From an uncultured Candidatus Melainabacteria bacterium (GTDB taxonomy: Bacteria; Cyanobacteriota; Vampirovibrionia; Gastranaerophilales; Gastranaerophilaceae): 64,000 bases of DNA. The position numbers and the translations under genes were made by a program. Shown one piece after another: positions 1,808-4,525 of this stretch. Within the stretch, counting starts at the first letter, position 1; each line of letters begins with the position of its first letter. Under the pieces are notes generated by a model. The model made no database searches. It was not told where the DNA came from and saw nothing but the letters and a program-made list of their open reading frames with translations. The stretch lies in contig CANNUY010000001.1 of assembly GCA_947525005.1 (NCBI GenBank), forward strand, positions 321,379-385,378. Reading direction: 5' to 3'.

Positions 1808-3070
1808 TTAATCAATAAGTTGCGTAACCCAACGTAAAAGGTTTGAAAGTTCATAAGGTTTTGGTAAATATAAATCAGCGCCTGTATTTAGGATAGCAGA
1901 TTTGTCGTGTATGTTTGACGTTGCGATGATTTTAGAATTTGCGTACATTGTTTTAAGGTTTTTGCATAGTTCAAGGTTGATTTTATTATCATCAATATCT
2001 ATTATGAACATATTGGGGATTACGTCTTGTGTTAATTCAGTTATAACATCATAACCTTGAAGTTCTAAGGTTGTTCTTAACAATAATTCAAGTGCTTCAT
2101 CGGGTTCTATGACAACGATTTTGTTGTTTGGGATTACTGTTGCAGAACCTTCTCCTGATAACTTTGGTCTATCTACGATGTAGTTTGATTTTGCTGGTCG
2201 TTTTGCGAGATACTTTATTCTACGCATTTGGTTAATTATGTGTTCTGGGTTGTTGAATTTGTTGTATTCACAGGTTATTACACTAATAAGAAGTGATAAA
2301 AACTCAATTCTACGTTCTGCTTCGTCATCACCTTGAAGTAGCATGTATCCTCGTGTGCTATCTTCTTGAGAATAAAACTTTGGTGCAACTGTATCAAAAG
2401 CAATTGCGAGATATGATGCTATTTTTTCAGCTATGGTTGAATTTGTGATTATCATAAACTCATTTTCTGATAGACGACTTAAGAAATCTGTGTCATTTAT
2501 TGACGATTTTATGATAGCGATAAGTGTTTGAACAACTTTGTCACCAGCAAAATCGGTGTATAGTTCAACATATTGTTTAAAGTTTTCTATATTAATAAGT
2601 AGAGTCGCCCAGTTTAAATCTTTGTTTGCAAGCACACGTTTTAGCGTTCTTGTGGTATATTTTTCGTTTGGTAAAAGAGTTTTTGTGTCGAGGTTTGTTT
2701 CTATCTCACGTCTTAGGTGTGCTTTTATCCTAAATTGAAACTCTTTTATGTTAACGGGTTCGCTAATATAGTCATCAGCACCTGCTGAAAGCACTTTTAT
2801 TTTGTCATCAGTGTTATCAGATTTTGATAGTGCAACAATGATTGGTCTTATGTTGTAAGTTAAGACACGTATTTTTTCACAAAAATCACTTAATTCTTCT
2901 GGAATGCTGTCTGATATTATTATTAAATCAGGTTCGTTTGTTTGAATGTGAGAGAGTGCATCTTTTATTGTGTACGCCACATTAACTGTTGTATTCTCAT
3001 CAGAAAGCGACTTTTTGTACTTTGTTGAAAGTACTTTTCTAATATCTATTATTAAGACGTTACACAGCAT
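1808..3070 (-). CDS. Response regulator with unusual architecture: N-terminal degenerate receiver, degenerate GGDEF-like domain, C-terminal canonical receiver
   Basis: The N-terminal REC-like segment (VLIIDI...DLIIISD...GADDYISEP) has the conserved Lys replaced by Glu. The central region aligns with a GGDEF fold (LLINIENFKQYVELYTDFAGDKVV ... SRLSENEFMII), but the GGDEF motif itself is replaced by SENEF. The C-terminal REC has the phospho-acceptor Asp (MFIIDID), Thr (IIATSN) and Lys (LYLPKPY). The gene overlaps the upstream kinase gene by 19 nt. Confidence 0.75.
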   Translation of the reverse strand: MLCNVLIIDIRKVLSTKYKKSLSDENTTVNVAYTIKDALSHIQTNEPDLIIISDSIPEELSDFCEKIRVLTYNIRPIIVALSKSDNTDDKIKVLSAGADDYISEPVNIKEFQFRIKAHLRREIETNLDTKTLLPNEKYTTRTLKRVLANKDLNWATLLINIENFKQYVELYTDFAGDKVVQTLIAIIKSSINDTDFLSRLSENEFMIITNSTIAEKIASYLAIAFDTVAPKFYSQEDSTRGYMLLQGDDEAERRIEFLSLLISVITCEYNKFNNPEHIINQMRRIKYLAKRPAKSNYIVDRPKLSGEGSATVIPNNKIVVIEPDEALELLLRTTLELQGYDVITELTQDVIPNMFIIDIDDNKINLELCKNLKTMYANSKIIATSNIHDKSAILNTGADLYLPKPYELSNLLRWVTQLID

Positions 3071-3798
3071 TTAACTTGCTCCTCAATATTATAGATAGGA
3101 AATGTTATTTTGAATTCTGTACCATTTTCAAGGTTTTTGAATGAAATAGAGCCATTCATTTTTTCAACGAGAGTTTTTGTTATGTATAGACCTAATCCAC
3201 TACCTTGAACCTTTCGTGTTAGGGGGTTATCTATACGTGCAAATTTTTCAAATATTTTTTCTGCATATTTTGTATCAATACCTGTTCCTTGATCACGGAT
3301 TAAGATAGTTATGTTGTTGTATTCTTCTTTTGTAGAGATGAAAACGGTTGTATTTTCTTCTGAATATTTGCAGGCATTTTCTATTACGTTTAGAAAAATT
3401 TGTTGTAATCTATCGACATCTGTTGCGATTGGTGAAATATTTTTTTTAAAATTTGTTTCAAATTTGTGGGTTGAGTATTTTTGTTTAACTAATTGAATGA
3501 CATTTGATAGGATTGGATTAACATCAGTTTTTTTGAGTATAAGTTTTTCATCTTGCATTTTTGTAACTGATAGTATATTTTCTACAAGATGGATTAAACG
3601 GTTTGATTGTTGCTCAATTATTTCAAGAAATCTTTTTTTTGAGGTGTCGTCGAGTTTATCCCAAGATGTGAGCATGGTTTGAGCGAACCCTCTAATACTT
3701 GTAAGAGGAGTTCTTAATTCATGTGAAACGGTTGATATAAAGTCATCTTGCTTAGTCATACTTTGATTATAACACGTGATAAAAAACTTACTAGACAT
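3052..3798 (-). CDS. Sensor-less cytoplasmic histidine kinase (HisKA plus HATPase_c only)
   Basis: The H-box FISTVSHELRTPLTSIRGF sits within ~30 aa of the N-terminus. The N, G1 and G2 boxes are present (IRDQGTGID, GSGLGLYITK). There is no TM helix or sensor domain. The gene is translationally coupled to the downstream response regulator. Confidence 0.85.
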   Translation of the reverse strand: MSSKFFITCYNQSMTKQDDFISTVSHELRTPLTSIRGFAQTMLTSWDKLDDTSKKRFLEIIEQQSNRLIHLVENILSVTKMQDEKLILKKTDVNPILSNVIQLVKQKYSTHKFETNFKKNISPIATDVDRLQQIFLNVIENACKYSEENTTVFISTKEEYNNITILIRDQGTGIDTKYAEKIFEKFARIDNPLTRKVQGSGLGLYITKTLVEKMNGSISFKNLENGTEFKITFPIYNIEEQVKCCVTS

Positions 3799-3895
3799 TT
3801 TTTTATGTTTGTAATATTATGGTTCTGTAGAGAGTAGATAGTGAGTATACTGATTTACTTTTTACAGATTGAAAATTAAATATAAAATGCAATAA

Positions 3896-3984
3896 GCCCT
3901 TGTGGCAAGGACTCCACGAGAACGATTAAGTATCGTTCGAGAAGGAGGGGAGAGTAGACGCCGCGTCTAGCGAGTCCGCTTTCC
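3896..3984 (+). ncRNA. Candidate structured RNA / pseudo-tRNA, unit 1
   Basis: Starts with the tRNA-Leu 5-prime acceptor sequence. It has three hairpins: GTGG-caaggact-CCAC, GAACGAT-taagt-ATCGTTC (TAA-containing loop like the anticodon loop), and TAGACGC-cg-GCGTCTA (a palindromised D-arm segment GTAGACGC). Confidence 0.35.
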
Positions 3985-4018
3985 AAAATAATTGAAAATT
4001 AAATAAAAAATGCAATAA

Positions 4019-4117
4019 GCCCTTGTGGCACTCTGCCGACGAGAAGGTGACTAAATGTCACGTTCGAGGAGAGGGGAGGTAGACTTGTCTACCGATTCCA
4101 CTAAGGCAGTAAGCATG
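4019..4117 (+). ncRNA. Candidate structured RNA / pseudo-tRNA, unit 2
   Basis: Same layout as unit 1 with covarying stems: GGTGAC-taaat-GTCAC and GGTAGAC-tt-GTCTACCGATTCC. The latter contains a perfect inverted copy of the tRNA D-loop segment GGAATCGGTAGAC. The ends close with CCTTGTGG / CCAC-t-AAGG. Confidence 0.35.
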
Positions 4118-4152
4118 TAAAAACTTTGAAAATTAAATAAAAAATGCTATAA

Positions 4153-4239
4153 GCCCTTGTGGCGGAATCGGTAGACGCGTTGGACTTAAAATCCAATCGG
4201 GGTTCACCCTCGGTGCCAGTTCAAGTCTGGCCAAGGGCA
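4153..4239 (+). tRNA. tRNA-Leu, anticodon UAA, type II with long variable arm
   Basis: Folded by hand. Acceptor GCCCTTG/CAAGGGC, 3-bp D-stem with an 11-nt D-loop containing GG, anticodon stem TTGGA/TCCAA with loop CTTAAAA (U33, anticodon TAA), ~16-nt variable arm, T-stem GCCAG/CTGGC with loop TTCAAGT, discriminator A. No encoded CCA. Confidence 0.93.
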
Positions 4240-4247
4240 TTTTTAAA

Positions 4248-4276
4248 AAGACTCACAGTATGTGGGTCTTTTTTTG
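4248..4276 (+). terminator. Rho-independent terminator after tRNA-Leu
   Basis: Hairpin AAGACTCACA-gtat-GTGGGTCTT (one wobble) followed by a T7 run. Confidence 0.5.
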
Positions 4277-4288
4277 TTGAGAATATAG

Positions 4289-4525
4289 TTTATTAAGGTT
4301 GATGATGATAAAGATGTCGGTGTAAATATAGATAATGTCGGTGTAAAAACAAAAGATAAAGTTTTAGCGTTAATAAAAGATAATAATAGAATAACTATGA
4401 ATGAATTGGCTAGCCAGTTAGAAAAGAATCCTAGAACTATCGAACGAATTATTGAAAAGTTGAAGCAAAATAATAAGATAAAACGTGTTGGCTCTGATAA
4501 AACTGGTACTTGGGAAATTGTCTAA
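4289..4525 (+). pseudogene. C-terminal winged-HTH remnant of an AlbA_2 / RecG-C-terminal-like 'ATP-dependent DNA helicase' type regulator; only ~78 codons open, and the single in-frame ATG is at 4397
   Basis: The translation ...KVLALIKDNNRITMNELASQLEKNPRTIERIIEKLKQNNKIKRVGSDKTGTWEIV* matches the characteristic C-terminal HTH tail (…IERxGSDKTGxWxI) of that family. The upstream reading frame is closed by a stop at 4286. Confidence 0.45.

Follow-up and report, generated by a model that had tools for sequence, protein, structure and literature searches.

Structured cassettes upstream of tRNA-Leu(UAA) in gut Gastranaerophilales: a conserved RNA family at a tRNA target motif and its possible role as a self-mimicking tRNA leader

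What are the two structured units that precede the tRNA-Leu(UAA) gene in a genome of the Gastranaerophilales, which are non-photosynthetic cyanobacteria? The window, the whole 64-kb stretch of DNA that was analysed, contains a single tRNA gene, tRNA-Leu(UAA), at positions 4153-4239 of the + strand (62.6 bits; ARAGORN and Rfam). An initial annotation of this DNA had described a 38-bp module that occurs three times and only in its third copy, starting at 4126, continues into a genuine tRNA, and all of its sequence-level statements hold on re-examination. The module, TTGAAAATTAAATAAAAAATGCWATAAGCCCTTGTGGC, was found on the + strand at 3869-3906 with one mismatch and at 3992-4029 and 4126-4163 without mismatch; in 100 shuffled sequences it was not matched once. 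Copies 1 and 2 consist of a flank, A-rich in copy 1, followed by nucleotides 1-11 of tRNA-Leu (3896-3906 and 4019-4029, respectively), whereas copy 3 runs into the intact tRNA. Since the same unit-unit-tRNA arrangement recurs in independent metagenome assemblies (L001-L003; related loci are given L numbers) and in a reference MAG (L039), it is not an assembly artefact.

The two units, both on the + strand and about 95-105 nt long, are built alike. Unit 1 (3896-3991), a "type B" cassette with homologues at L039, L101 and L105, scores 36 bits against the type-A model. It contains hairpin 1 (CCTTG-TGG-CAAGG, 3898-3910), the sequence CTCC (3912-3915), hairpin 2 with a 10-bp stem and the loop TAAGT (3917-3941), the purine tract AAGGAGGGGAGAG (3942-3954), hairpin 3 (TAGACGC-C-GCGTCTA, 3955-3969) and the tail TTTCCAAAATAA (3980-3991). 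Unit 2 (4019-4125), a "type A" cassette that is matched by the covariance model with 97.4 bits, contains hairpin 1 (TGGCA-CTC-TGCCG, 4026-4038), hairpin 2 with the loop TAAAT (4040-4068), the purine tract GAGGAGAGGGGAGG (4066-4079), hairpin 3 (GGTAGAC-TT-GTCTACC, 4078-4093), inverted copies of tRNA nt 23-12 (4087-4099) and of tRNA nt ~10-1 (4098-4107), and a tail (4108-4125). The common layout claimed for the two pseudo-elements was thus found in both, with the same order of hairpins and purines: ..CGAGAA, a hairpin whose loop contains TAA, GTTCGAGRAG..GGGGAG and a hairpin containing GTAGAC. The inverted D-loop copy that had been noticed in unit 2, GTCTACCGATTCC at 4087-4099, is 100% complementary to GGAATCGGTAGAC of the tRNA (4164-4176), and unit 1 carries an 18-nt inverted D-arm copy that is 89% complementary (3962-3979). 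Folding of the + strand is better than that of shuffled controls for both units (z = -3.9 and -2.3).

Judged by their sequences, the units belong to a conserved family of gut Gastranaerophilales that had not been described before. Homologous cassettes of about 100-130 nt, in the orientation of the tRNA, adjoin the 5' side of tRNA-Leu(UAA) in no fewer than 12 further Gastranaerophilales lineages, the copy number ranging from zero to three. The order of the parts is tRNA nt 1-11, a short hairpin, a long hairpin, the purine tract, a hairpin derived from the D-arm and an A-rich tail, the third hairpin being composed of a sense copy and an inverted copy of the D-arm segment. In a scan of 185,579 species genomes for the core pattern, the low-GC hits came exclusively from MAGs of the Gastranaerophilales type (L012, L034, L035, L039 and L053) and the others were chance matches in high-GC DNA; a metagenome scan contributed L063, present as 12 identical contigs from human gut, and L069, L070, L071 and L082. 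A covariance model yielded 30 matches, all of which, except L012, adjoin tRNA-Leu(UAA). As the pattern scans demanded part of the core, the apparent invariance of the core in the loci they delivered is partly an artefact of ascertainment; the more divergent units of L101, L105 and L114-L117 were found without the core pattern, via the neighbouring histidine-kinase gene. No description of such cassettes was found in the literature. In the comparison with the 4227 models of Rfam 15, units 1 and 2 hit no family even at E<=10, and the best hits other than tRNAs reached 13-22 bits against thresholds of 39-167 bits. With permissive as well as gathering thresholds the window and 11 related loci gave tRNAs only, and at the gathering threshold the whole window and eight related loci matched no other family. 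A blastn search of phage records gave no match. An origin from phages or plasmids was also considered, and discarded: the scan of viral contigs returned one chance hit, in DNA of 69% GC. The statement that the repeats do not form a CRISPR array is borne out; the units, which would be its spacers, share homology with one another and are conserved between genomes, its repeat would be the 5' end of the tRNA together with the flank, and the neighbouring genes include no cas genes.

The initial annotation had regarded the units as pseudo-tRNAs arisen by duplication and rearrangement of the tRNA gene. The units do contain real pieces of tRNA (nt 1-11, a sense segment of the D-loop and inverted nt ~1-23), they are structured, and the duplication is centred on the tRNA 5' end; however, a conserved and covarying family is not the product of a one-off rearrangement. 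The pseudo-tRNA identity has to be given up. Hairpin 2 and the purine tract, which form the conserved centre, have no detectable tRNA ancestry, and neither ARAGORN nor cmscan with Rfam RF00005 (E<=10) detected a tRNA in units 1 and 2 (3869-4152) or in the corresponding regions of the related loci. It is accordingly extremely improbable that the units are unusual tRNA-like molecules, CCA-tailed, aminoacylated or decoding, in which P1 would be the acceptor stem and hairpin 2 the anticodon arm. In type A the 5' and 3' ends pair in the manner of an acceptor stem, with an A after them (window, L034, L071), and UAA or UUAAG is found in loops of hairpin 2; yet the units match no tRNA model, T-arm and D-arm are absent, the loops have 5 nt with inconsistent would-be anticodons (AAG, GAG, AAA), and the pairing of the ends is gone in types A' and B and at L035 and L082.

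Evidence for a conserved structured RNA comes from hairpin 2. Both sides of the stem are changed in 6 of its 10 pairs, as in CGAGAACGAU/AUCGUUCGAG, CUAAAACGAU/AUCGUUUUAG, ACAAACGAU/AUCGUUUGU and GAACAAU/AUUGUUC, and 85.5% of the alignment cells are paired. Not one of 500 shuffles equalled these covariation values, which collapse when the register is slid. RNAalifold recovered three hairpins with six covarying pairs. With its covarying stem and a tip that, like the purine tract GGAG(R)GGGAG, is near-invariant, the middle hairpin is, on comparison of the aligned units, under purifying selection. The conservation of a non-tRNA core where spacers and acceptor stems have diverged, the multiple compensatory double substitutions in hairpin 2 and the occurrence of the same core at a different tRNA (L012) make it very unlikely that the units are neutral scars, i.e., degenerate partial duplications or rearrangements of the tRNA gene devoid of selected structure or function, although tRNA pieces in direct and inverted orientation, remnants and decayed copies are what such scars would leave. 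The G.U pairs of hairpins 2 and 3 are confined to the + strand, a sign in favour of a + strand RNA. The opposite strand folds too, but there the G.U pairs of hairpins 2 and 3 become C.A mismatches, and an RNA of the minus strand was rejected. The closing helix, with one such site per strand, is uninformative in this respect.

By inspection, hairpin 2 of type A reads as a canonical kink-turn (CC/GG stem, GAC bulge, G.A/A.G, GAA/UUC stem). Kink-turn hairpins are binding sites of the L7Ae protein family. The likeness is confined to type A: type A' (L114-L117) and the B-like types have no 3-nt bulge, L101 has Watson-Crick pairs in place of the tandem G.A pairs, and L105 combines a Watson-Crick pair at one of these two positions with a G.A mismatch beside it. 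Because it is missing from types A' and B-like, the kink-turn does not define the family and was dismissed as its key feature. A small open reading frame behind the GGAGG tract was likewise dismissed; in unit 2 a TTG opens one of 11 codons, which is not conserved in L053, L071 and L063.

The insertion site offers a clue to how the cassettes came to their position. They sit immediately 5' of GGAWTCG, after GTG(G)(C), which in tRNA-Leu(UAA) is between nt 11 and 12 (GTGGC^GGAATCG in the window). The left boundary is a duplicated left flank of the target, tRNA nt 1-11 plus 6-27 nt of leader, and through this duplication an intact tRNA gene is kept downstream. The motif GTG(G)(C)^GGAWTCG is common to the D-arm of tRNA-Leu and to antisense T-arms of other tRNAs, and in 377 kb of related DNA it was present at the tRNA insertion sites only. 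Homologous inserts, which the initial annotation had not considered, lie antisense to tRNA-Thr (L012, two copies at GTGG^GGAATCG) and tRNA-Ser (L103, at GTG^GGATTCG), and on sequence comparison they show site-specific insertion. Being antisense, they cannot act as cis leaders, and no host function is therefore needed for their presence. A search for empty tRNA-Thr sites, which followed glycosyltransferase genes homologous to that of L012, met with no conserved gene order and with neither a tRNA nor a unit. The flank duplications measure 17 nt (L101), 19-21 nt (L012), at least 38 nt (window) and 45 nt (L103, tRNA-Ser); ^GGAWTCG marks their fixed end, and the opposite end varies. The empty sites of L099 and L107 differ from the filled site of L101 by exactly one unit plus the 17-nt repeat TTGCAAGCCCTTGTGGC. 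Within one species, strains with two units, one unit, a remnant plus one unit, or a remnant only are observed. Loss, internal deletion and 5' decay are frequent (L115, L118, the upstream copy of L105, the remnant of L070) and look like selfish or neutral turnover.

These properties raise the possibility of a purely selfish, non-autonomous mobile element that is inserted 5' of GGAWTCG by an enzyme encoded elsewhere, a target-primed reverse transcriptase or a single-strand DNA transposase or nuclease. According to this scenario, the long variable target duplications would be left by insertion, the hairpins would serve mobility, and the tRNA-Leu leader would be a tolerated, highly transcribed safe harbour. 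Insertion at one motif in three different tRNA genes, in an orientation that follows the motif and not the tRNA, is consistent with it, as are the long variable flank duplications with one fixed end, the A-rich 3' tail (..AAAATAATTGAAAATTAAATAAAA..), the empty sites, copy-number polymorphism and decaying copies, and the presence of several cassette types (A, A', B and C) at the same site. Arguing against it is that the gene tables list neither a transposase nor an integrase nor a reverse transcriptase, whether for the 64-kb window or beside any cassette. The genes of the window are housekeeping and efflux genes and one giant open reading frame. In addition, terminal inverted repeats are absent: the left end is ACTCTGCC or AAGGACTCC, the right end ..TTGRAAAATT, and an internal pair, GGACTC/GAGTCC, is the sole inverted match in their place. 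Three target sites only were seen, a single ancient event with vertical inheritance and tandem duplication thereafter could account for most copies, and in every cassette the local target is the template of a hairpin that lies between ends borne by the element. We know of no transposition pathway with this last outcome. Selfishness as the whole explanation thus seems rather unlikely.

Among the known elements close to the cassettes are tRNA-derived SINEs, other non-autonomous retroposons and MITEs, with which they share the short non-coding sequence, the tRNA-derived 5' part, the A-rich 3' tail, direct repeats of the target of variable length, empty and filled sites, and decaying copies. The SINE-like combination of an A-rich 3' tail with variable duplications that have one fixed end is present; the terminal inverted repeats and the short duplication of fixed length that mark MITEs and IS elements are both missing. 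Unlike SINEs and MITEs, the cassettes reside in a bacterial host with strict site-specificity 5' of GGAWTCG, their tRNA-like head is the duplicated target itself, the local target serves as template for their internal hairpin, and they are without terminal inverted repeats or a known reverse transcriptase or transposase partner. With integrative elements that target tRNA genes (attL/attR) they have in common that a partial copy of the tRNA end flanks the insert and that the intact tRNA is retained, and the arrays resemble the tandem accretion of such elements. In contrast to these, the insert is only ~100 nt long, no integrase is nearby, the repeat varies in length and, unlike att duplications, it includes a lineage-specific flank outside the tRNA at three different tRNAs; hence the repeat was not carried in by an element moving among the three targets. 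Neither an integrase between the repeats nor repeats that equal a sequence shared by attP and attB, as att duplications have, were found.

Whatever the mode of insertion, the layout of the locus suggests that the cassettes at tRNA-Leu are transcribed. A promoter-like site, TAGACA-17-TATTAT, lies upstream of the whole array (3792-3820, + strand), and a hairpin with a T-run, whose 13-nt arms are 92% complementary, follows the tRNA at 4245-4277 on the + strand; it is the likely intrinsic terminator of the entire transcription unit, recognised from the inverted-repeat arms and by inspection of the sequence, and was not listed by the terminator scan. The TAGACA-17-TATTAT element is also found upstream of tRNA-Leu or of the array in L099, L101, L103, L105, L107 and L114-L118, and equivalent TTGACT-17-TATTAT sites precede the arrays of L063 and L053. 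In the three relatives that were scanned (L063, L117, L053) each array has one sigma70-like site, upstream, and no further promoter-like site on the tRNA strand of the spacers between the units; in two of them, L063 and L117, the scan detected a terminator after the tRNA. Between the units and the tRNA no terminator-like site was seen on the tRNA strand of the window, L063, L117 or L053. The site at 3792-3820 is the probable promoter of a unit-unit-tRNA transcript, and the units are most likely transcribed together with tRNA-Leu.

An alternative would be that the units are independent sRNA genes, each with the 38-bp module as its own promoter, which encode a trans-acting sRNA that binds protein or RNA and whose link to the tRNA consists of a borrowed promoter and 5' end. 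The module of the window reads TTGAAA-16-TGCTATAAG, the one extra promoter-like site in the window overlaps module 1, and the near-invariant tip of hairpin 2 with GGAG(R)GGGAG is what one expects of a binding site. However, in the window the putative -10 hexamer reaches as far as position 1 of the tRNA, which would place the start inside the tRNA; in L101 the repeat has 17 nt without a promoter and the unit lies directly behind the promoter of the array; the copies of L012 and L103 lack such a module; and the spacers of L063, L117 and L053, as described above, gave no promoter-like hits. A promoter in each module is thus not supported in relatives L101, L063, L117 and L053, and the reading as independent sRNA genes is improbable. 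The module is probably the duplicated left flank of the insertion site and provides no private promoter to each unit.

If the cassettes are a leader, they could interfere with the tRNA that follows. In the predicted minimum-energy precursors of all eight loci folded, G1 of the unit pairs with the 3' acceptor strand of the tRNA, so that the tRNA's own acceptor stem is predicted to remain unformed, and G1 of the tRNA is paired back into the 3' region of the unit in six and unpaired in two (L114, L105). The predicted trapped fold is 7-19.5 kcal/mol more stable than unit and tRNA folded separately, in a nearest-neighbour calculation that takes no account of the tertiary structure of tRNA, of modifications or of co-transcriptional kinetics. 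By these models the 3' arm of the cassette can trap the tRNA 5' end, with which the idea of a processing decoy put forward in the initial annotation agrees. Trapping is not universal, since the inverted tRNA copy is missing from some units (L035, L082), and gene conversion instead of selection could be what keeps the inverted copy matched to the tRNA.

We consider as the best explanation, with a probability of roughly 0.45, that motif-specific insertion cassettes are co-transcribed as a structured leader of the tRNA and act as decoy and anti-decoy to tune the yield of tRNA-Leu(UAA). In this model, which is built on sequence comparison and predicted folds, one promoter would deliver cassettes and tRNA in one transcript with the cassettes as 5' leader, and RNase P would separate the two by its cut at the tRNA 5' end. 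The released cassette RNA would fold into three hairpins. Pairing of the 3' arm (inverted tRNA nt 1-23) with the cassette's own 5' arm would leave the tRNA free to fold; alternatively, the 3' arm would pair with the 5' end of the downstream tRNA, which would then be trapped. The cassette would thus be a self-mimic that serves as decoy and anti-decoy and modulates the amount of mature tRNA-Leu(UAA) obtained per precursor, and an abundant small RNA might be produced alongside.

This leader model recalls T-box and trp-type attenuators in that three elements compete, the cassette's 5' arm and the near-identical 5' end of the tRNA being rivals for one complementary 3' arm. In contrast to attenuators and riboswitches, the cassettes have no terminator or anti-terminator between unit and tRNA and hence no downstream expression platform, no known ligand and no Rfam match, and, unlike T-box and trp leaders, they would regulate the folding and processing of a tRNA and not the transcription or translation of an mRNA. 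The loop of hairpin 2 was also considered as a codon-like specifier for tRNA-Leu(UAA); UUAAG and UUGAG would fit, CUAAAUG and CUAAACG of type A do not, and the idea was dropped as a general feature. A second comparison is with the E. coli glyW-cysT-leuZ transcript, whose 3' external transcribed spacer is an sRNA sponge. Functional spacer RNAs of tRNA operons appear as a topic in PMC8166272 and PMC6191717. As in such operons, a non-tRNA segment would be co-transcribed with the tRNA, here tRNA-Leu, and would be freed by the tRNA-processing enzymes, possibly as a stable small RNA. Unlike the glyW-cysT-leuZ spacer, the cassettes are repeated, variable in copy number and located in the 5' leader; they consist in part of direct and inverted copies of the tRNA 5' end, contain a covarying hairpin and have no known sRNA partner.

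The cassettes define an undescribed RNA motif, supported by covariation, in an uncultured lineage of the human and ruminant gut. As co-transcribed leaders they would represent a natural tRNA precursor that brings along a competitor for its own 5' end and a way to tune the maturation of the tRNA that reads UUA, probably the leucine codon used most in this genome of 32% GC. If they are mobile, bacteria would possess an insertion mechanism that creates long variable target duplications and target-templated hairpins; to our knowledge, no prokaryotic transposition pathway explains both. The boldest proposal, to which we attach little likelihood, combines the two: a new bacterial mobile element, miniature, non-coding and RNA-structured, would use GTG(G)(C)^GGAWTCG for a templated insertion (target-primed or template-switching) that duplicates a long variable left flank and builds a hairpin from the local target, and it would have been domesticated at tRNA-Leu as a self-mimicking leader that gates the maturation of the major leucine tRNA. 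Moreover, the cassettes probably account for assembly breaks at tRNA-Leu loci: of the four contigs that carry the histidine-kinase gene adjacent to the window's array, two (L003 and L004) stop inside or beside the array.

The cassettes preceding tRNA-Leu(UAA) are tentatively regarded (probability roughly 0.45) as motif-specific insertions that at this site would serve as structured leaders, transcribed with the tRNA and capable of modulating its maturation. The 38-bp module described in the initial annotation, an A-rich flank followed by the first 11 nt of tRNA-Leu, is present at 3869-3906, 3992-4029 and 4126-4163 with no or one mismatch; 100 shuffles yielded no match. As claimed, only the third copy reaches a tRNA; tRNA-Leu(UAA) at 4153-4239 is the sole tRNA within the 64-kb window. 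The first two copies lead into unit 1 (3896-3991, type B, with an inverted L directly behind L, the copy of tRNA nt 1-11) and unit 2 (4019-4125, type A), both on the tRNA strand, and the layout said to be common to them was seen in both. The inverted D-loop copy reported for unit 2 is a perfect 13-nt copy at 4087-4099, and unit 1 also contains one (18 nt, 89%, at 3962-3979). Both units fold better than shuffled sequence (z = -3.9 and -2.3). A search of the two units with a tRNA model and Rfam gave no match, even at E≤10; that they are tRNA-like molecules charged with an amino acid is extremely improbable. Independent human-gut assemblies, Hadza samples among them, show the arrangement too, which rules out an assembly artefact in the window.

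The pattern CGAGAA-N10-24-GTTCGAGRAG-N1-5-GGGGAG, run on one genome per prokaryotic species, found a handful of low-GC MAGs amid about 50 high-GC chance matches. Those of the MAGs with a taxonomic label belong to the Gastranaerophilales; the others are "uncultured bacterium" MAGs. Further contigs came from human-gut and other metagenomes. With a covariance model derived from nine units, 30 copies were detected in the fetched DNA, all of them, except at the tRNA-Thr locus L012, directly upstream of tRNA-Leu(UAA) on the same strand. Loci found by the pattern were chosen by their core sequence, a bias countered with loci fetched through homologues (65-83% identity) of the histidine kinase encoded nearby; these retain the kinase-tRNA-Leu neighbourhood and carry zero, one or two units each, more divergent in sequence. 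The existence of the family, the structure of its members and their site specificity are well supported, and a literature search found no description of such elements.

On the strand of the tRNA, each cassette begins with L, nt 1-11 of the local tRNA-Leu, behind a duplicated leader of variable length. The end of L pairs with the first element bases to form hairpin 1 (UGGCA-CUC-UGCCG in type A, CCUUG-UGG-CAAGG in type B). Hairpin 2, of 9-10 bp, has a near-invariant tip, CGAU-URAGU-AUCG or GUGAC-UAAAY-GUCAC, and is followed by the purine tract GGAG(R)GGGAG. Hairpin 3 is formed by R, a stretch matching tRNA nt ~12-25 except for a 3-nt deletion, and by R*, the same stretch inverted; in type A an inverted L comes next. 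The A-rich tail, ..TTGRAAAATT.., forms the 3' end. Locus L070 contains a third interior, type C, within the same frame, together with one deleted remnant.

Among 11 distinct versions of hairpin 2, both sides change in 6 of 10 pairs, as in the stems CGAGAACGAU/AUCGUUCGAG, CUAAAACGAU/AUCGUUUUAG, CUGGUUCGAU/AUCGAAACAG and ACAAACGAU/AUCGUUUGU. In the alignment 85.5% of cells are paired, the observed values were reached by none of 500 shuffles, and the covariation signal was lost when the register was slid. RNAalifold recovered the three hairpins and six covarying pairs from ten type A and A' units. That the units are neutral scars is, next to this covariation, very improbable. On the opposite strand the G.U pairs of hairpins 2 and 3 would turn into C.A mismatches, which modestly favours a product that is RNA, or a single strand, of tRNA sense. 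A kink-turn suits type A but is not conserved across the family and was rejected as its defining feature.

The promoter scan covered three relatives (L063, L117, L053). Upstream of every array it gave a single sigma70-like site, TTGACT-17-TATTAT in L063, and between units on the tRNA strand it gave no further site. In the kinase-linked group the site reads TAGACA-17-TATTAT, including window 3792-3820; the window has one additional promoter-like match, overlapping module 1. In the kinase-linked locus L101 the unit lies 14 nt downstream of the array promoter, and the repeat common to unit and tRNA is only 17 nt. Because of the single upstream promoter, this spacing and the short repeat, the module is a duplicated flank and not a per-unit promoter. 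The terminator scan detected a terminator behind the tRNA in L063 and L117 and none in L053; it missed the hairpin and T-run at window 4245-4277, found as an inverted repeat. Most simply, the units would be part of the tRNA-Leu primary transcript; that they are independent sRNA genes is improbable.

In the minimum-energy fold of unit plus tRNA, G1 of the unit pairs with the 3' acceptor strand of the tRNA at all eight loci, so that the tRNA's own acceptor stem is unformed in the predicted fold. G1 of the tRNA is paired back into the 3' region of the unit in six of the eight and left unpaired in L114 and L105. In the drawings for the window and L063, the 3' arm of the unit (R*L*) forms a 15-20-bp duplex with the first ~23 nt of the tRNA, and the joint fold exceeds the parts folded separately by 7-19.5 kcal/mol in stability. 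As the RNA is being made, the unit's own 5' arm would be the first partner that the 3' arm encounters. A three-way competition between these arms and the tRNA 5' end could control how the tRNA folds and is cleaved by RNase P, and this is the hypothetical mechanism that we favour.

The empty kinase-linked loci L099 and L107 differ from the filled L101 by exactly the cassette and a 17-nt repeat, TTGCAAGCCCTTGTGGC. Among strains whose kinase protein is identical, the locus has two units, a single unit, a deleted remnant with one unit, or just the remnant. In L012 two type A cassettes adjoin tRNA-Thr(CGU) on the opposite strand, each preceded by a 19-21-nt antisense copy of the tRNA-Thr 3' end and trailer. 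In L103 (~2050-2200, minus-strand reading) a 54-nt insert with type B ends adjoins tRNA-Ser(UGA) in antisense, flanked by two 45-nt copies of the tRNA-Ser 3' end plus terminator; these ends and the duplication are evidence for a third target. The insertion junctions resemble one another at all three targets: Leu has TGTGGC^GGAATCG, Thr has TGTGG^GGAATCG and Ser has AGTG^GGATTCG. Within 377 kb of related DNA the motif was absent outside these tRNA sites. Each target's own right-hand sequence supplies hairpin 3 (GGGTTCGATTCC at Thr, GGGTTTCGAACCCAC at Ser), so this hairpin is templated locally and not brought in with the element. We know of no transposase or integrase pathway that would combine a target-templated hairpin with flank duplications that are long, variable and fixed at one end; the nearest analogies are target-primed synthesis and template switching during break repair. 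No enzyme candidate was found within the window, nor any link to phage.

The antisense copies at other tRNAs, the frequent decay and the varying copy number argue for selfish insertion and turnover. Counted for a host role are the covarying hairpin with its invariant tip and the constant position in a strong tRNA transcription unit. A purely selfish element is considered somewhat unlikely. As putative leaders at tRNA-Leu, the motif-specific insertions would work in a fashion similar to tRNA-operon spacer RNAs (3'ETS-leuZ), attenuator-type competing helices and SINE-like or MITE-like non-autonomous repeats. Membership among tRNAs, Rfam families, CRISPR, MITEs, integrative elements, kink-turns or attenuators fails in each case on at least one tested feature, and the cassettes are classed as tRNA-linked structured repeats or leader RNAs. 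Categorical novelty of the insertion mechanism, of the self-mimic control or of both is unlikely.

Between the tRNA-Thr-linked cassettes of L012 (~6087-6016, minus strand) lies a 23-codon hydrophobic ORF (MIDKIIMLLVALTMLVVALKLHS) with a strong ribosome-binding site and a terminator-like hairpin, resembling a type I toxin. The whole promoter-tRNA-Leu-terminator cassette is flipped relative to the histidine-kinase gene in L099 and L101 compared with the window, L103, L105 and L107. Of the four contigs with the window's kinase gene, two (L003, L004) break off 143-432 nt upstream of it, inside or beside the array; the repeats probably break short-read assemblies. At its N-terminus the kinase ORF (3052-3798, minus strand) extends 13 codons (3760-3798) beyond its 235-aa homologues and there overlaps the promoter-like site 3792-3820; its true start codon is therefore probably further downstream. 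Directly behind the tRNA-Leu terminator, a 42-aa ORF (4397-4525, plus strand), annotated as a gene in other assemblies, resembles the C-terminal DNA-binding end of a longer protein and had no Pfam match; the in-frame stretch upstream (region 4277-4525) lacks a start codon, and the ORF is probably a gene fragment. From 33710 to 64000 (plus strand) a single ORF of more than 10,000 codons continues past the window end; its first 1000 residues had no Pfam match, and it combines a signal-peptide-like N-terminus with many GGAI(Y/L)...N repeats, like polymorphic-membrane-protein or autotransporter adhesins.
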